Positions 26,499 through 58,014 of a stretch of DNA of 64,000 nucleotides are shown here, in pieces (the first letter of the stretch is position 1; every line of letters starts with the position of its first letter). The notes beneath the pieces are model-generated. The model was not told where the DNA came from. It saw nothing but the letters and a program-made list of their open reading frames with translations, and made no database searches. The stretch spans positions 736,001-800,000 of the forward strand of contig CAWFSF010000002.1 of assembly GCA_963818475.1 (NCBI GenBank), given 5' to 3'. The stretch comes from Nitrospirota bacterium (lineage in GTDB: Bacteria; Nitrospirota; UBA9217). Made by a program: the position numbers and the translations under genes.

Positions 26499-28418
26499 CT
26501 ACGCCGTCCCCCGTTCCCCGCCGAACATTTCTATGATCTTTCTTACTAAGGCAGGCAGCGAGGGGTCCCTCGCTCCCATGAGAAGAACGCAGTCTTCTGG
26601 CTTCGCATCGGCCTGTAATCTGGCCAGGAGCTCATCGCGATCGCTCACTGCCTGCGCTTTGAATGCCACGGGGCCAAGGCCCGTGATGATGTCTGCGGAG
26701 GAGATGTTTTTCTGCGCCGTGCCGCCGGCATAATAGATCGGCAGGAGATAGAGCGAGTCCTGCTGCCGGAAAGCGGTCCGGAAGGTCGCGATGTATTCAT
26801 CTTTCAAGAATCGGGTCGGACCGAATCCATGCGGCTGGTACACGGCAAGAATGCGCTCCGAAAGGCCCCGGCTGGCACTGACCGCAGCCGCGATCTTTGC
26901 CGGGTTATGCGCAAAGTCGTCGACTACCTGCACGTTCTGTTTTGTTCCGGTCACGGAAAAACGACGCGCCACACCGTCATACTGTTGTACCGCATGGGCA
27001 AGCGCTGCAGGTTCGCACCCGTACTGCTCGCACACACAGAGCGCAGCGCAGAGGTTTTCCAGATTGTGCTCACCCGGCAGCGGCAGATGATACTCAACGT
27101 TGTTCCTGAAAAGCTTGACCGAGGTCGGCAGAAGCTCTTCCCGGTCCGGCCGCCACGAGCTGGAACCATTCCGGCCGAAGCGCAGGGTTGCTGGAAGGGA
27201 AGCAAGGACCGGGTCGTCGGCATTGGATGCTGTCCAGGAAGATTGCGAAGCCAGCGTTTTGAAAAGCGCTGTGATCTCGTCAACGCTTTTGTGGTCCTTC
27301 GAAACATTCAGGATGACCGAGGCGTCGGGACAATACTTGACCAGCGTTCCGTCGCTTTCGTCCGCCTCCACCACCAGAAGATCGGAACCGCCGCTGTAGG
27401 CATTGCCGATAAGCCCCTTTTTTTCAAGCCTGCGCAAACCAGCGCCGCTCAGGAGGGAGGGCGACTTGCCGCAGGCGGTCAGGAATTCGAATATCATCGC
27501 GGTCACCGTGGACTTGCCGCTCGTGCCCGCAACGGCGATCGTCTTCTTTGCGGCGATGAGCGCGGCGAGCACGTCTGAGCGATGGACGATCGGAATGCCG
27601 CGCCTCCTGGCAGCGGCGATGTCGGGATTCGAGTCTTCTATTGCCGTTGAGATGCAGACGACATCCGTGTTCGCACGCACACCCGAACCGTCCTGAGGCG
27701 CGATGGCGCATCCGAGCCCTTCAAGCGATCGCCGGATCGCGGCGGTGTCATCGCTTGCATGGAAGCGGTCGGAACCCGAGACCGTGATCCCCTGAAAGCG
27801 CAGGTATTGCGCCAGCGCGCTCATGCCGCTGCCGAATATGCCGGTGAAATGGACGCTGCGGCACCGGCCTCCGCTGATAACGATCGGCGGAGGGTCGATG
27901 TAGACGAGCGTGCCTTCCTTCACTGTTTCGAACAGGCGGGCGATGTCGAGGTTGCGCAAACAGACGCACCCGTGAGAGAGAGGAGTGCCGATCAGGTCCT
28001 CCCGGCCGGTGCCGTGGATATAGATGTAGCGTTCGTAGGAATCCACGCTCCCGCCCTTGTTGATCCCCTCCTCCAGGCCTTCGAGCCGCAGGATGCGGGT
28101 CAGGATCAGGTTGTCCCCGGTCTGGCTGTGGTCCCAGTCCTCGCCCGTGTCCTCGCGGTCCCTGAAGACGCGGCCGGGAGGCGCGCCTGCTCCGAACTTC
28201 TCCCTGATCCGGTGGAGACCGACCGGTGTTTTAAGCGAGTTTTCCCGATTGCCGATGCCGAACCGGGAGGTCGATGCGTCGTAGCGCTCGACAATGGTGT
28301 CGTTCGAACAGACGAAAAGCGTCTGCGTCTCGATCGATACCACTAGATAGTGGTCTTGCGGATTGGTTAAAAAGGGACCTACTCTTTTGAGAATACGATG
28401 TAGTCGAGCTGTTTCCAT
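26499..28418 (-). CDS. YkuD (L,D-transpeptidase-fold) domain fused to MurC/Mpl-like ligase
   Basis: YIYIHGT..SHGCV then HFTGIFGSGMSALA, GSD, AGTSGKST, VEADESD, GVARRF, DDFAHNP, QPH. Confidence 0.88.
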   Translation of the reverse strand: METARLHRILKRVGPFLTNPQDHYLVVSIETQTLFVCSNDTIVERYDASTSRFGIGNRENSLKTPVGLHRIREKFGAGAPPGRVFRDREDTGEDWDHSQTGDNLILTRILRLEGLEEGINKGGSVDSYERYIYIHGTGREDLIGTPLSHGCVCLRNLDIARLFETVKEGTLVYIDPPPIVISGGRCRSVHFTGIFGSGMSALAQYLRFQGITVSGSDRFHASDDTAAIRRSLEGLGCAIAPQDGSGVRANTDVVCISTAIEDSNPDIAAARRRGIPIVHRSDVLAALIAAKKTIAVAGTSGKSTVTAMIFEFLTACGKSPSLLSGAGLRRLEKKGLIGNAYSGGSDLLVVEADESDGTLVKYCPDASVILNVSKDHKSVDEITALFKTLASQSSWTASNADDPVLASLPATLRFGRNGSSSWRPDREELLPTSVKLFRNNVEYHLPLPGEHNLENLCAALCVCEQYGCEPAALAHAVQQYDGVARRFSVTGTKQNVQVVDDFAHNPAKIAAAVSASRGLSERILAVYQPHGFGPTRFLKDEYIATFRTAFRQQDSLYLLPIYYAGGTAQKNISSADIITGLGPVAFKAQAVSDRDELLARLQADAKPEDCVLLMGARDPSLPALVRKIIEMFGGERGTA

Positions 28419-28593
28419 ACGTGATCCGCTGCTTTCCTTGCAGAATATTTTTGTAAAAGCCCAGCGACAATATAAAGGTAGCCATGGTGTATTGTCAAGT
28501 CGATAGAGACCCTCGCCGTCATTGCGAGCCAAAGGCGAAGCCTCAGATTTTTGCCCCTTTTTCTGATCAACCTCACAAACATGCTAAAACAGG

Positions 28594-29651: not shown

Positions 29652-29990
29652 CGCAGATCAGAACGGACCTGACCTATTTTAGGTTCATTCGTATTTAAGT
29701 TGAAATACTCATAAAACTGAAATTCAAGATCAAGAACCTCTTTGGAGGGGAAAGGGGGAAGTTGGGAGAAAAGGGGTAACTGCCTTTTAATAAGAATTAA
29801 TCCCCATTTCACCATTCTTCTCCATTTCTCCTCACAAGGTTCTTCTTCGAGTTTCGAACCTAAATCCGTTTCTTCAACTGTTATACGAAAGAGCCTTTAT
29901 TAAATCTGCGTCCATTTGCGAAATCTGCGGACAAAGATTTTTCTCTGATGAAATATTCTTCTGAGAAATGTGTCACCACCGTGGAAATTT

Positions 29991-31297
29991 ATGCTGAACA
30001 TCCTCATCATATCCGATGAAGCGAAGACCATCGCTTCCCTGTTCAAGGCGGCGGGGTTCAGTTCCGACACCCGGAACCCGTCAAAGCCGAACAGCGTTTC
30101 TGAATCAGCTCCGCCCAGGGCGGAAGGCTACGATATCGCCTTTCTGGACCTCGACACCGAGGACTGGCAGCAGCGGCTGCTCGACGTGCGTCACAGCATG
30201 CCGGTCATCGCTTTTTCTCTTCCTGACCTGAAGAAGGCCGTAGAGGCCATGAAGCTCGGCGCCAGCGATTATCTGGAAAAGCCGCTGACCGGCGAGGTCC
30301 TGAGCCAGGCCATCGAGACGGCACAAGAAGCGGATCCTGACCCACAAGTACGGATTCGACGAGATCATCGGGATGAGCAGGCCCATGCAGGATGTCTTCG
30401 GCCTGATCAAAAAAGCCGCGGCCAGCGAGAGCAACGTGCTGATCACCGGCGAGAGCGGCACGGGCAAGGAGCTGATCGCCCGGGCGATCCACCGGTGGAG
30501 CCCGCGCAGCGAGAAGTCCTTCATGACCATCAACTGCAGCGCCATCCCGGACACGCTGCTCGAATCGGAGCTCTTCGGCTTCGAAAAGGGCGCTTTTACC
30601 GGCGCACAGTACCTGAAGAAGGGCCTCCTCGAGCAGGCTGACGGCGGCACGGTCTTCTTCGACGAGATCGGCGATGTGTCGCCGCTGTTCCAGACCAAGG
30701 TCCTGCGGGTGCTGCAGGAAGGCGAGATCATGCGCATCGGCGGGATGCGGCAGATCAAGGTGGACGTGCGCTATATTGTCGCCACCAACGTCGACCTCAA
30801 GACAGCGTGCCAGCGCGGCGCCTTCCGGGAAGACCTCTTCTACCGCTTGAACGTGATCAACATCCATCTGCCGCCGCTCCGGGACCGGATGGAGGATGTG
30901 CCGCTGCTGGCAAAGCATCTGATCCAGGAGCATGCGGTCAAGCGGAAGGACATCATGATCAAGTGCATCAGCGGCGATGCCCTGAATATCCTCATGAACC
31001 ACTCCTATGCCGGCAATGTGCGGGAACTGGAAAACATCATCGAACGGGCCATATCCTTTGCAAACACCTCGGACATCCTGCCGGCAGACCTTCCCCCTTA
31101 TCTCCTGCAGGCAACGCCTGCCAAACCCCGGCCCGCGGCCCAGCGGCTTCGCGACGCCATCGACACGGCCGAACGGGAAACGATCGCTGCCGCTCTTCTC
31201 GAATCACAGGGCAACATTTCCCGCGCAGCAACCAGCCCTCGGCATTTATCGCCAGCAACTCCAGCGCAAGATCAAGCAGTATAAAATAGCAACATAA
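29991..31297 (+). pseudogene. Sigma54-dependent response regulator, frameshifted
   Basis: REC in one frame; [34 protein letters not shown] in another; HTH split. Confidence 0.85.
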
Positions 31298-53599: not shown

Positions 53600-54013
53600 A
53601 TGAAAACAACAGCGGGTTTGTGGATTGACCACAAAAAAGCAGTGATCGTGGTGGTTACAGCCAAAGGAGAGGAAATAAAACTGATAATATCAAAGGTTGA
53701 AAAACAGCCCGGACGTTCTGGTGGTGTACGTACTACGGCTCCCTATGAACAGCAAGTTCTGGCAGATGACAGTCTGGAGAGAGTGTTTAGGGGACATCTT
53801 AACGTTTACTATGATGCAGTAATTGCGTGTATTCGTGGCGCAGAGGCTATCCTGATATTTGGTCCAGGTGAGGCAAAGGGCGAATTGAAAAAACGTATCC
53901 AGAGAAGTAAGCTCAGCGGACGCATCGTAGGAATTGAAACTGTTGACAAGATGTCTCATCGTCAAATTTCAGCTAGAGTTCGACAGCACTTTTCAAATAG
54001 AGTTCGGCAATAG
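53600..54013 (+). CDS. Release-factor-like / host-attachment-family small protein (cassette)
   Basis: GLWIDHKKAVIV, ILIFGPGEAK; followed by attC-like site. Confidence 0.7.
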   Translation: MKTTAGLWIDHKKAVIVVVTAKGEEIKLIISKVEKQPGRSGGVRTTAPYEQQVLADDSLERVFRGHLNVYYDAVIACIRGAEAILIFGPGEAKGELKKRIQRSKLSGRIVGIETVDKMSHRQISARVRQHFSNRVRQ

Positions 54014-54027
54014 GATCGAGATAGAAG

Positions 54028-54090
54028 AACCGACGAGGAACTGCAGTGGACGCGAATAGGCCGTGCCGCTGAACGTTCCAGTCGTTGATC
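54028..54090 (+). mobile_element. attC-like site (degenerate)
   Basis: GAC..CAGTGGACGCG..CGTGCCGCTG..GTCGTT imperfect palindrome after a stop codon. Confidence 0.6.
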
Positions 54091-54362
54091 GTCAATGATT
54101 TAAAATCCTCGAAATCGCTCGGCAGTAAGTGTTTATCATAAATCCAAACAGAATCTATCAGAAGTGAAAAATACCGGCTGAAGTATGTAGCGCATTATCC
54201 TTCCTGGACTCGGTATAGATGCATTTCTTTGAAACATATCGCGTTACATTCTGCACTAGTTGGAATTCCTTTAAAATACTCATTGCTGACGATGATATAC
54301 GCTTAAATAAGACGTATAGCTTATCGCCTCTCGCGGTTCTGAAGGTCATCGGAGGAATACTA

Positions 54363-55040
54363 ATGAAACTTATTCTGTCATCTATCGTTGCTTTATCTTT
54401 TTTATGCCTAACCATGGAACTACAAGCACAAGAAAATCATTTATTTTATAATTGTATTAAAGATGCATATAGGGACTCAAATTTAAACTATAATTTAAAA
54501 AGTAGAACGCACATTGTATAGTAAGAGGCCAAAACCACAAGATTCACTTGATCAGAGCGGCCTGAATGCGGAAATTCCCACTCCAAAAAACAAAGAAGAA
54601 GAACTAATCCAAAGACAAACCATTGAAGCTTTGTACCGCCAATTTTTTAGAAACGTTAAAGCAGGAAAACAATATTATCCTATCAGTGAGATAAAAAAAC
54701 TGTATGGTATGACACCGGAAGCACGTATAGGTGTTTCTTCGGGAGGATACTACCGATTATTTGTTGCATACTGGACATTAAAGGCTAAGTTAAGGGAATA
54801 TCAAGAAACAAATATTGAAAAGAATGGATACGCTAATATTTACTATGTTGACAATTTACTCTTTTTTGTAGAGTCAACCTTGGCTGGAGCTTTTTTCCCA
54901 ACTCTGGTCCTGCGCAGATTCCTGAGTCTTTACGCCGTCAAGGAATTCAACAGATGTTAAATGCCTTTGCCCCGAATATGACAATAAAGGAACTCTATGA
55001 AGGGGCAGATGCTCAAAAGGCTAGATGGCCGGTTCTAAAA
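54363..55040 (+). pseudogene. AT-rich hypothetical exported protein, frameshifted cassette
   Basis: GGAGG RBS, MKLILSS signal; overlapping ORFs ending 54521 and 54960. Confidence 0.5.
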
Positions 55041-55224
55041 TAATAAGCAGATAACCAATTACTACACTGAATGCAGTGAGTGCATCATTGAGTCTGTAGA
55101 ATAAATCATTTTGGACGAAATAAGCCTTAAGAACATCAAATACTTATGAACCACAAAAATGTGAATCTTGGGCTTTTTCTGCAGACTCGTTGGGCAACAC
55201 TCACGCTCACGAAAGGATAACCGT

Positions 55225-55422
55225 ATGTCTTTGCCGCAAGACTTCTGGGAACAACTACCAGAGAGGACGGATGAGGAATTGTATGGCATGCTTGCTCACC
55301 CAGACGACTACCGGCCAGAAGCTCTCGAAGCGGCGAAAGAGGAGCTTCGTAAACGCAATCTCGCGCCGGTGCGGACGGCCCAGCTTGAAGCCGTTGCTCA
55401 GTCACAAAAGACAGTGAGGTAG
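55225..55422 (+). CDS. Short hypothetical cassette ORF or fragment
   Basis: AAGGA RBS; TDEELY..DYRPEALEAAKEELRKRNL; stop abuts attC. Confidence 0.5.
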   Translation: MSLPQDFWEQLPERTDEELYGMLAHPDDYRPEALEAAKEELRKRNLAPVRTAQLEAVAQSQKTVR

Positions 55423-55424
55423 GG

Positions 55425-55547
55425 GCACAACAAAGTTGGTTTAGCGAACCGCTGCCTATCTTTTTCGTTCGACGCCGGGCAGTAATTTGAGAGTGTATGC
55501 GCTCCACCGTCCCTTTTGGCGGCGGTCGCTCACCCCTATCGTTCTTG
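55425..55547 (+). mobile_element. attC-like site
   Basis: GCACAAC..AGCGAACCGCTGCC ... GGCGGCGGTCGCT..CGTT. Confidence 0.6.
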
Positions 55548-55564
55548 CCGTCGCTTCGCGTCGA

Positions 55565-55679
55565 CAAGAACCCCCGGGTGATCGGCTGAACCGTTCTTTC
55601 TGGAAAACAGCGCGGAGGAGCAACCGGTTCGATACCGCCTTTGCTCCTGCCGGGCAAGCCGATCACCCGGGGGTTAGTG
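55565..55679 (+). mobile_element. attC site
   Basis: AACCCCCGGGTGATCGGC ... GCCGATCACCCGGGGGTTAG. Confidence 0.7.
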
Positions 55680-55913
55680 TTTCATACCGGTGATTCTGGC
55701 TAAAAATGAGGAGGCATGCCAATGGAATTTCGTCACGGTCCCTTTTGGAAGGACTTTTTTTTTATGCTGGCGATTGGCGTGGCTGTCACTATAATCAGAT
55801 CAATATATTAGAGTGCGAGAAAGAAATCGGAGAATGAAAAAGAACACAATTACGTAGGTAAATCAGGAATAGGTCTGACGCTGAGAAATATATTGGAAGA
55901 CTAATTAGCACGC

Positions 55914-56480
55914 ATGAATATGAGAAGAAACCCAAAAGGACAGGAAGGTTTAACCGAGAAGCAAAAAGCACTTTATGATACTATCAAATCCATCGACAAC
56001 GACCATCCTGGTGAATTGATCAGTAATAAGCAAATTACAGAAAAATATCAACGCAGTCACGGTCCACTTAACCTCCTACCGACGGATTTTTGCTATAACT
56101 TAGTAAATGTAGGTCCCGATTTTGTAGCAAAATTTTTGATGAGCGTTGAAAAAGGAATGTTTAGATTTGTTGATTTTCAGTGGCAAGCAAAAGATGATCA
56201 TGTGGATATAACATGGACGCCCAAGGGCAAAGATGTGCCTGAAGAACTGAAGGGGAAATTTTTTTCGGTAGGCATGTACCACAAAGGTGAATATAGCTGG
56301 AACTTTTCGGATCTTACCAGTCAATTCCAACACTCCCCCCGTTACGCAGACTCTATAAAAGTCGATAAAGAAATTAAGGCACAGACAAAACCCTCATCTT
56401 GTGAACAGTGCGGTCATACTGATTTTACATTCGATGGCTTTGAATATTCTTGCGTCAAATGTGGATGGAAAACTATATAG
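55914..56480 (+). CDS. Hypothetical cassette protein with C-terminal zinc ribbon
   Basis: PTDFCYN; CEQCG..CVKCG; AT-rich. Confidence 0.7.
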   Translation: MNMRRNPKGQEGLTEKQKALYDTIKSIDNDHPGELISNKQITEKYQRSHGPLNLLPTDFCYNLVNVGPDFVAKFLMSVEKGMFRFVDFQWQAKDDHVDITWTPKGKDVPEELKGKFFSVGMYHKGEYSWNFSDLTSQFQHSPRYADSIKVDKEIKAQTKPSSCEQCGHTDFTFDGFEYSCVKCGWKTI

Positions 56481-56507
56481 TTAATAGGTATGTCCAAAAA
56501 GATTATG

Positions 56508-56570
56508 TTCTAACGAAAACGTTCGAGAGGGTCGGTCAAGAAACGCCCGCCCCTCAACTCATTGTTATCT
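56508..56570 (+). mobile_element. attC site
   Basis: TTCTAAC..GTTCGAGAGGGTCGG..CCGCCCCTCAAC..GTTAT. Confidence 0.8.
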
Positions 56571-56586
56571 TTGAAAGGAATGGGGC

Positions 56587-57919
56587 TTGCGTCTTCACTA
56601 TTCAGCTTGTGATGATGCAGCAAAGCAAGTGAAACGAAGCGACTACTTAAAAACAATTGAAGGTCAGGTCGGCCTTAGGCGAAAGCGCAGGATGCACAGA
56701 TTGCACTTCATGCTTGATGGTCAGGAACCGCAAAGCAAGAAAGCTATTTCTGAAGCAGAGAAAGAAGCTTTTCAAAATGCCATCCTGAATAAAATGGTAG
56801 AGCGGAAACGCAGGCACTTCAAGGCTCCAGTAGCAATTGAATTCGACTTTTTTCCAACCAAAAATAATCCACCTGCTTTACATACAATGCCAAAAAATTA
56901 TCTCGACCTGCTTGAGGGACCCCGCGCAGGTGTCGCTTCTAAACGCAAACGAATTGTTTTTGAAAATGATAGGCAGGTCAGTTACTTGGCGGCAAAGTAC
57001 CACTTACCCATAGACCAGTCTGGACCAAGCATCTGGTTAAAGGTGGCACCTTACCGGAATTTTGTTGCTGACATTGCATTACTAGACAAGATTCAGCGAG
57101 AGGAGCTGAAATCAGCGTCGGGTGGGCATGTTAATCAAAGACCATCATGGGGTGATCTGCTTGAGAATGACGACGATGCCAGGCAGAACTATGATCCTGT
57201 TGAACAATTGCGGGAGCATGAAAATAATAAACAATTCTGGGTCTCACGTTTCGGCCAGGATGTTTATGAAGCATGGCGTGAGATGCATATGCGGGACGTT
57301 CAGGATCAACTTTTAAAAACACTTGCATTGACTCCTGGCAAATTTATCAGCTTATTGTCACCTCTTTTTTCCGAACAACCGCCGGAACTTGAGAGGATGC
57401 ATGGGATAGACTGAACTCGATCAAGTGAACCTTTTGCTATTGATTTGAAGCATTCAAATCTTGCAGAAGGTGAATCGTCACAGTACAAGGCTTTCGTAAA
57501 ACGCACAATGGCTTCCTATAGAGAAAAACACAGCGGCCTGTTTCCGCTAATAGCTCAAGTTGGCATAACAATACTTTTCAGCCACCCGCAACGGGCGGCA
57601 TCGATCTCGACAATCTCGCTCGAAGAATTGTACCCTTTGTAAACGAAGAGTTAAAGCCGCCAGCAGTCTCCTAATGACCGTTAATTCTGACCGATGTACA
57701 GATTCCAATCTGAGGCAGTGGTATCAGGAAAAGCAGAGCGCGATTAAGAAAATGCCCAAGCACTCGATCACCCATTACCAAGTTGTTCAACTGCCACGTC
57801 TCACCACTGATAGTCAGAATGGTTTTGTTCGACTCATTTTAGAGCCAGGTGAACACGTCGAGAGCCTCTGGAGCAAAGTAGAGAACTTGGCAGATAAGTG
57901 GCTGGACAATTTCACTTGA
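56587..57919 (+). pseudogene. Hypothetical cassette protein, interrupted
   Basis: Consecutive ORFs 56587-57414, 57445-57642, 57674-57919. Confidence 0.55.
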
Positions 57920-58014
57920 TAATTCACTTGATAGTAGACAAAATAATTCAGTTTTTTCAATGTTGATAACTTGGAGTGGAAGGATTGGCAGAACCAAGTA
58001 GAACCCGACAATAA

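Follow-up and report, generated by a model that had tools for sequence, protein, structure and literature searches.

A YkuD–Mur ligase fusion protein of Nitrospirota, a candidate trim-and-ligate enzyme of cell-wall peptide recycling

The subject of this report is a single gene, on the reverse strand between positions 26499 and 28418 of a 64,000-nucleotide stretch of DNA from a Nitrospirota bacterium (assembly GCA_963818475.1, contig CAWFSF010000002.1, positions 736,001 to 800,000; hereafter the window), whose product joins an N-terminal YkuD domain to a three-domain Mur ligase. The best explanation for this protein, and one that is held with a little more belief than doubt on the strength of sequence comparison, is a bifunctional recycling enzyme that would trim a recovered cell-wall tetrapeptide and ligate the resulting tripeptide to UDP-N-acetylmuramic acid (UDP-MurNAc). 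The ligase half is part of a large clade that sits apart from canonical MurC and from Mpl, and this same clade is coupled to two unrelated families of L,D-carboxypeptidase by fusion, by gene overlap and by adjacency.

A preliminary description of the window, made from the letters alone, had already suggested such a trim-and-ligate function. That proposal gains support from the coupling just mentioned and from the genome itself, in which, at 91% completeness, neither an Mpl over the cut-off nor an S66 LdcA gene was found.

The fused gene and its distribution

The clean open reading frame of the preliminary description was borne out as 639 amino acids (aa) without stops, and the fusion is not an assembly artefact. 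A check of domain architecture, which that description had advised, found the four-domain arrangement to be conserved: it was present in 120 of 120 relatives of 80–88% identity among the matches listed (JGI, ENA, NCBI and Logan), and the fused proteins number in the hundreds among metagenome proteins from several sources. Within the phylum, the fused frame was found in 39 of the 201 sampled genomes, this genome counted, and it is confined to one family there (38 of 44 sampled members, and this genome). The uninterrupted frame in these relatives contradicts the possibility, raised at the outset, of two separate genes. Two of the 39 genomes have the frame cut by contig ends, and one has it interrupted by an in-frame TAA. 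A search of the 50%-identity representatives of 1.84 billion proteins brought up further fused forms at 63% identity (645 aa, from a Chitinispirillaceae metagenome-assembled genome, or MAG) and at 47% identity (657 aa), plus one fragment.

The AlphaFold model of the fusion, which was built on an 89-sequence alignment, has a mean predicted local distance difference test score (pLDDT) of 92.9 and a predicted template modelling score (pTM) of 0.91. The short linker between the two enzymes is also modelled confidently, with a pLDDT of about 94, and it begins where the YkuD gene of a split form, described below, comes to an end, at the residue aligned to fusion residue 175. No hydrophobic segment is seen at the N-terminus, as read from the translation, and residues 3–16 are modelled as a helix. 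Homologues of 635–640 aa and stand-alone YkuD proteins begin, in the alignment, at the position of the ATG at 28418, which is the likely start because the lengths of the relatives and the starts of the stand-alone proteins match it.

The chance that the fusion is an artefact of assembly or gene calling, or else a decaying gene, is considered negligible. It could draw on the in-frame TAA in one relative and on the nature of the source genome, a 7-contig assembly with an estimated contamination of 6.2%; set against these are the recurrence of the fused frame, uninterrupted and at full length, in 37 other sampled genomes of the phylum (with two more in which contig ends cut it) and in hundreds of metagenome proteins, the conservation of the catalytic residues of both halves, and the confidence of the structure model. 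The relative in question is G005, in which the orthologous fusion gene (G005:C4:716627-718537) holds a single in-frame TAA that may mark either a pseudogene or a sequencing error.

The YkuD half

The N-terminal YkuD domain shows in translation all that had been reported of it, namely an intact histidine and cysteine, in the motifs YIYIHGT (His135) and SHGC (Cys151), and the segment ILTRILRLEGLEEGIN. The 89-row alignment has 45 rows with a YkuD domain, 17 from fused and 28 from stand-alone proteins, in at least 95% of which His135 and Cys151 are conserved. When the domain was compared with ElsL and the L,D-transpeptidases (Ldt), the two groups for which a phylogeny had been advised, model scores favoured ElsL. 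The ElsL model NF040925 matches the fusion at 130.3 bits for the whole protein and 134.3 bits for the domain alone, over model positions 7–159 of 164 and fusion residues 24–175, versus 28.8 bits for the best periplasmic Ldt model, some 100 bits lower. By these scores the domain is ElsL-like rather than Ldt-like, and it is a distant relative of ElsL, not a member by the rule of NCBI, as the curated cut-off of 270 bits is missed. Thousands of stand-alone YkuD proteins of 170–180 aa are 52–65% identical to the fusion domain, and for the seven of these relatives that were scanned, as for the fusion domain, ElsL was the best model (126–158 bits, versus 28–38 for Ldt).

In Acinetobacter baumannii, ElsL has been shown to be a cytoplasmic L,D-carboxypeptidase that cuts the recycled tetrapeptide to a tripeptide and thereby feeds Mpl, and its loss to be harmful because Mpl then ligates the tetrapeptide to give a toxic precursor; a natural fusion of ElsL to a ligase goes unmentioned in the passages of that paper that were examined (PMC8649774). 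A cytoplasmic location would be expected for the YkuD domain studied here as well, because it is fused to an ATP-dependent ligase.

An observation on annotation belongs here. The stand-alone YkuD proteins of about 175 aa are often named “UDP-N-acetylmuramate--alanine ligase” by JGI, a name presumably carried over from fused relatives. Two of the proteins so named share the size of their longest contig (76141 and 262160 bases) with members of the P0122 ligase cluster, which hints at more split pairs.

The ligase half, neither canonical MurC nor Mpl

The second half had been called a complete ligase of the MurC/Mpl type. Its completeness stood, with all three Mur ligase domains exceeding the Pfam threshold; the type needs correction in so far as it implies an Mpl orthologue, and by both sequence and modelled fold the ligase is placed in a large, undescribed third clade that is closer to MurC. 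The fusion scores 290.1–291.1 bits with the MurC model TIGR01082, under the cut-off of 335.1, and 101.3 bits, in two stretches, with the Mpl model TIGR01081, under the cut-off of 388.7. With no AFF or FFD anywhere in it, the fusion does not have the (S/T)AFFDKRSK motif of Mpl, and it has QPHGFGP instead of EPRSxT. The separate murC that the preliminary description wished to see confirmed does exist: a canonical gene of 561.5 bits, versus 291.1 for the fusion, lies in the division and cell wall (dcw) cluster beside other Mur ligase genes. The fusion lies outside any such cluster, as had been stated; on this contig some 300 kb separate it from the dcw cluster.

The clade as a whole behaves in the same manner, with 55 of 60 scanned members under the MurC cut-off. 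Among the 150 best representatives listed, the fused forms are followed by ligases that are for the most part unfused and some 450 aa in length, with scores of 263–588 bits; against the same ligase query, the genome's own MurC scores about 190 bits. The suggested phylogeny of the ligase against MurC and Mpl placed it with neither. In a tree of 164 sequences rooted on MurD, the canonical MurC sequences (a thin sample of six, from E. coli and five genomes of the phylum) and the Mpl sequences (three, from E. coli and two genomes of the phylum) group together and are split from all 154 clade sequences with a support of 0.997. The structure model of the ligase best resembles the closed, product-bound form of MurC (1p3d), with a template modelling score (TM) of 0.87 and a root-mean-square deviation (rmsd) of 2.5 Å. 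Literature searches brought up no account of the fusion, of the clade or of any second peptide ligase resembling MurC; a mention beside the LdcA of Novosphingobium is possible.

The residues of the ligase tell of a chemistry that is kept and a pocket that is changed. The positions of MurC that deal with UDP-MurNAc, ATP and Mg are all conserved in the clade, including the Gly-rich motif, GSD, the P-loop Lys, EADESD, the Mg-binding Glu, DH, two Asn, RR and DD. Substitutions specific to the clade concentrate in the C-terminal domain, where two signatures stand out: DD[FY]AHNPxK, for which canonical MurC has DDYGHHPTE and Mpl has DDFAHHPTA, and QPHG[FY]xP, for which canonical MurC has QPHR[YF]TRT and Mpl has EPRSxT. 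In the MurC of Haemophilus influenzae, the incoming L-Ala is reported to be bound by His376, Arg377, Arg380, Tyr346 and His348 (PMC3060825). Arg377 of that enzyme is replaced by Gly in 153 of the 154 clade sequences and Arg380 by Pro in 151 of the 154, and the Arg380 position is retained in the canonical MurCs of four further phyla. Judged from these columns, the ligase looks able to activate UDP-MurNAc and looks to be without the anchors for the carboxylate of free L-alanine, a loss that is expected if alanine comes in at the head of a peptide.

One candidate for the clade was set aside. At locus L044 (6007-7341) of an Elusimicrobiaceae MAG of 1.3 Mb, the only MurC-like gene found there follows dapA, an amino-acid kinase gene, asd and dapB in one direction. 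One motif of its product fitted the clade, but the product has QPHAFTS, which is neither the MurC nor the third-clade pattern, and with no other MurC-like gene found in that genome its place was taken as ambiguous.

Coupling of the clade to L,D-carboxypeptidases

The link to the ElsL-like family extends beyond the fusion. On two metagenome contigs a split form occurs, in which the clade ligase has its own gene and the start of that gene is overlapped, over 17 bases, by the gene for a YkuD protein of 175 aa. The YkuD protein of the split form is 54% identical to the N-terminal domain of the fusion, without gaps, and its ligase is 88% identical to a Fibrobacter-type member of the clade that is itself 58% identical to the ligase of the fusion. 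In the tree, the ligase of the fusion is sister to the Fibrobacter-type group and separate from the unfused paralogues that occur in its own phylum, and because of this grouping the gene pair, or the fusion, probably reached the fusion-bearing family by transfer.

The other family is Peptidase S66 (LdcA). Three clusters of 742–764 aa consist of a clade ligase followed by both Peptidase S66 domains; they are 45–85% identical to one another, each carries the clade signatures, and an alphaproteobacterial contig of 42.5 kb holds one of them. Among 20 clade loci from species genomes of other phyla, an S66 gene directly adjoins the ligase in 10, which are all 10 of the proteobacterial loci and include that of the cultured Altericroceibacterium indicum. 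One of these ten pairs is co-directional and nine are head to head. The S66 genes were sought with a hidden Markov model made from the seven first-found genes, and thus tuned to proteobacterial S66, with the other loci covered by a Pfam scan of open reading frames only; those at L041, L047 and L050 were detected beyond the Pfam scan of the picked frames. In all three genomes that were searched whole, the adjacent gene is the sole S66 gene. Of the 201 sampled genomes of the phylum, just two were found to have a true Mpl, and in both an S66 LdcA-like gene is found immediately downstream on the same strand. In four of five genomes of other phyla, the clade ligase is accompanied by a canonical MurC (396–535 bits) and by no Mpl, and the same combination is seen in genomes of this phylum.

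Unfused members of the clade have more varied surroundings. Eight loci of the phylum with an unfused ligase (L015–L022) have no shared neighbour partner: a SPOR protein occurs in two, NamZ is near in one and a major facilitator superfamily (MFS) transporter occurs in one. In L015 (genome G190) and L022 (genome G169), the ligase gene is directly downstream of the gene for the SPOR-domain (peptidoglycan-binding) protein, which in L015 additionally carries a response-regulator receiver domain; in L017, the gene for the NamZ exo-muramidase is one gene away. In a Lentisphaerae MAG (L033, 1225-7344), a third-clade ligase gene is directly downstream of two genes with bactofilin domains, one of 1309 aa. 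A 754-aa NCBI protein, P0265, encoded on a 34.5-kb contig, consists of a third-clade ligase with an EF-P lysine aminoacylase domain of the EpmA type at its C-terminus, which exceeds the cut-off of TIGR00462 at 290.2 bits; as its cluster has no second member, it could be a gene-call merger.

Proposed pathway

The trim-and-ligate reading can be set out as a short pathway. Muropeptides would be imported and their sugars removed, for which the genome offers candidates in an AmpG-like permease (185.6 bits, full length), a GH3 NagZ-like hydrolase (262.5 bits) and an Amidase_2 AmpD-like amidase (61.9 bits); the genes are present, and their roles in recycling are putative. The YkuD domain, with His135 and Cys151, would then take the terminal D-Ala off L-Ala-D-Glu-meso-diaminopimelate-D-Ala, an L,D-carboxypeptidase activity predicted from its homology to ElsL. 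The ligase would activate UDP-MurNAc with ATP and attach the tripeptide as Mpl does, which is proposed by analogy with Mpl and not by membership of that family, and MurF would add D-Ala-D-Ala. With the two activities fused, an untrimmed tetrapeptide would be kept from becoming UDP-MurNAc-tetrapeptide, a dead-end toxic precursor, and the YkuD domain may additionally correct any of this product that is formed. The third clade would then be functionally analogous to Mpl, with an independent origin. The broader claim, that the ligase half represents a widespread and unrecognised family of murein-peptide ligases, marked by DD[FY]AHNPxK and QPHG[FY]xP and derived from a MurC-like ancestor independently of Mpl, is advanced tentatively, at slightly less than an even chance.

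The distribution of AmpG-like genes has some bearing on the pathway. In the phylum sample, 36 of the 39 fusion-bearing genomes have them, as do 17 of the 23 whose clade ligase is unfused (53 of 62 together); among genomes that have neither clade ligase nor Mpl, the figure is 64 of 137.

Weighing the alternatives

A number of observations weigh against the trim-and-ligate reading. The ligase is nearer to MurC than to Mpl in sequence (290 versus 101 bits) and in modelled fold (TM 0.87 to MurC 1p3d versus 0.67 to Mpl 3hn7), the L-Ala site keeps His376 and His348 and has Tyr346 replaced by Phe, so that an aromatic residue is retained, and the tree had few canonical MurC sequences. Both domains of the fusion score under the curated cut-offs of the families that they resemble. 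In the phylum sample, a clade ligase occurs unfused in 23 genomes, none of which has this YkuD (at E <= 1e-8) or S66, and 10 of the 20 loci of other phyla are without an adjacent carboxypeptidase; a trimming enzyme is thus not a constant companion of the ligase. The AmpG-like gene of the fusion-bearing family is divergent (185.6 bits versus a cut-off of 350), AnmK was matched only partially, at 27.6 bits, and the co-occurrence of AmpG is only a moderate signal, as related genomes are not independent and the comparison is phylogenetically confounded. The neighbours of the gene in the window offer no functional hint, and the single atypical MurC-like gene of the Elusimicrobiaceae MAG shows that odd MurCs can be housekeeping enzymes.

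One alternative makes the ligase a second isozyme of MurC, for the addition of one amino acid (L-Ala, Gly or L-Ser), with the YkuD domain in a separate or regulatory role. MurC is, after all, the best curated family (290.1 bits) and the best structural match (1p31/1p3d, TM 0.85–0.87), the JGI label is UDP-N-acetylmuramate--alanine ligase, the two histidines and the aromatic residue at 346 are retained, and the Elusimicrobiaceae MAG appears to have just its single atypical gene; Frankia, moreover, is reported to have two murC copies (murC1/murC2), with replacement of the housekeeping enzyme (PMC7231273). An isozyme is nonetheless judged unlikely, given a full canonical murC in this genome and in four of the five other genomes examined and the loss across the clade of both arginines that hold L-Ala, and it would leave unexplained the repeated fusion or adjacency to two unrelated L,D-carboxypeptidase families.

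A close rival, although assigned a similarly low probability, keeps both activities and reverses their order, so that the ligase would join tetrapeptide as well as tripeptide and the YkuD domain would proofread UDP-MurNAc-tetrapeptide to the tripeptide form that MurF can extend. It shares the comparative evidence of the trim-and-ligate reading, and the sequence does not discriminate between the two orders. The LdcA of E. coli acts on UDP-MurNAc-tetrapeptide too, and the model of the fusion sets the domains in one confident, apparently rigid arrangement (pTM 0.91), both of which would suit proofreading. The same can be said of Mpl, for which low rates with tetra- and pentapeptides are reported (PMC3060825, Table 3) and which, when ElsL is missing, is reported to produce the toxic tetrapeptide precursor (PMC8649774). 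A further alternative, in which the YkuD domain would act as a cytoplasmic transpeptidase and swap the terminal residue, for example for a non-canonical D-amino acid, in a form of precursor editing, is regarded as quite improbable. The domain does share its fold and its His/Cys pair with the L,D-transpeptidases, some of which catalyse exchange reactions. Against exchange, the ElsL carboxypeptidase model fits far better than any Ldt model, and elsewhere the same place is filled by S66 LdcA, a hydrolase that works by another mechanism, an indication that the function common to both is hydrolytic trimming.

Comparison with known systems

The YkuD half is most readily compared with ElsL (also LdtK) of A. 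baumannii, a short, single-domain cytoplasmic YkuD protein that acts ahead of a UDP-MurNAc peptide ligase (PMC8649774) and whose model is by far the best curated match to fusion residues 24–175. It differs from ElsL in its score (130–134 bits versus the cut-off of 270), in being joined to its partner covalently or by an overlapping gene, and in having a partner that is not Mpl. With Mpl (of E. coli, and of Psychrobacter arcticus, 3hn7) and LdcA (Peptidase S66), the fusion would share the proposed reaction, from tripeptide, UDP-MurNAc and ATP, and the position in the pathway, and there is the same genetic coupling to an L,D-carboxypeptidase that is seen in the two mpl–S66 pairs of the phylum; unlike Mpl, the ligase falls outside the Mpl branch, is without (S/T)AFFDKRSK and EPRSxT, and has a weaker fold match to Mpl than to MurC. 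Likeness to MurC (H. influenzae 1p3d and E. coli 2f00) lies in the same three-domain fold, as modelled (TM 0.83–0.87, rmsd 2.5–3.1 Å), and in all of the residues for UDP-MurNAc, ATP and Mg, whereas the fusion scores below the MurC cut-off, is encoded outside the dcw cluster and alongside a true MurC, and has Gly and Pro for Arg377 and Arg380. The bifunctional MurC-Ddl (NCBIfam PRK14573), which matches the ligase part at 173.9 bits, is likewise a MurC-type ligase fused to an enzyme of the same pathway; its partner, however, makes D-Ala-D-Ala and does not trim, and the fusion has no Ddl domain.

Implications

What is known of cell-wall peptide recycling by way of LdcA (or ElsL) and Mpl comes mainly from the Gammaproteobacteria. 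If the third clade is indeed a widespread family of murein-peptide ligases, the direct re-use of stem tripeptides exists in lineages that are now read as being without the Mpl route, among them Nitrospirota, Fibrobacterota, Sphingomonadales and other Alphaproteobacteria, Bacteroidota, Acidobacteriota and Lentisphaerota. A 2026 paper, in the part of it that deals with this point, equates missing homologues of LdcA and Mpl with no re-use of the tripeptide in many bacteria (PMC13046382), a premise that would have to be revised if the clade works as proposed. The fusion would offer a natural case of two consecutive recycling steps joined in a manner that avoids a toxic side product, and the repeated fusion to either of two L,D-carboxypeptidases would amount to a built-in safeguard against UDP-MurNAc-tetrapeptide. 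Should the clade be a second peptide ligase, annotation pipelines would be mislabelling hundreds of proteins as MurC or L,D-transpeptidase, and the change of two residues in the MurC pocket would provide a simple, testable rule for the switch of a Mur ligase from an amino acid to a peptide. Since recycling enzymes are reported to influence susceptibility to beta-lactams where this has been studied (PMC8649774), the family may also matter beyond environmental bacteria.

Gene features and neighbourhood

The coordinates of the gene, its domains and its motifs are collected in Table 1, together with those of the two mpl–ldcA pairs of the phylum.

Table 1. Coordinates of the fusion gene and its parts in the window, and of the mpl–ldcA pairs in two other genomes of the phylum.
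Feature	Position	Strand	Details
Whole fusion gene	26499..28418	(-)	639 codons, and stop at 26499-26501; stop-free translation with four Pfam domains
In-frame upstream extension to TTG	28419..28532	(-)	677 aa if the TTG start is used; probably not translated
YkuD catalytic domain, ElsL-like	27897..28352	(-)	residues 23-174; PF03734, 75.1 bits vs gathering threshold 23.4
Catalytic stretch HGTGREDLIGTPLSHGC	27966..28016	(-)	contains His135 and Cys151 (translation)
Short linker between the two enzymes	27855..27896	(-)	residues 175-188, about 14 residues; gap between Pfam domains
Mur ligase N-terminal (UDP-MurNAc-binding) domain	27546..27854	(-)	residues 189-291; PF01225, 55.8 bits; GIFGSGMS at 193
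Mur ligase middle (ATP-binding) domain	27030..27533	(-)	residues 296-463; PF08245, 48.1 bits; carries EADESDG
P-loop GTSGKST	27507-27527	(-)	in Mur ligase middle domain
Mur ligase C-terminal (incoming-substrate) domain	26568..26966	(-)	residues 485-617; PF02875, 59.2 bits
Clade signature 1, DDFAHNPAK	26895..26921	(-)	translation; column counts over 154 clade sequences
Clade signature 2, QPHGFGP	26817..26837	(-)	translation; alignment to 1gqq/1p3d
mpl–ldcA pairs	G171:C27:267209-269022 and G108:C43:208190-210003	same strand	

The neighbours of the fusion gene in the window encode RtcA, a DUF2784 protein, a nitroreductase, a small cytochrome c, a protein without a family, a Usp protein and a sigma-54 regulator, and no cell-wall gene is among them. 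As to expression, the sequencing runs that match the DNA are DNA runs only, each with at most 0.09 of the words, and no RNA run is listed. A sigma-54-dependent response regulator on the forward strand at 29970-31284 appears to be split over two overlapping frames, with the receiver domain in 29970-30641 and the AAA+/sigma-54 interaction domain in 30373-31284, which suggests a frameshift or a sequencing error. The G+C content of the window falls to 0.43 at positions 1-2000 and 54001-58000, versus 0.52–0.63 over most of its length.

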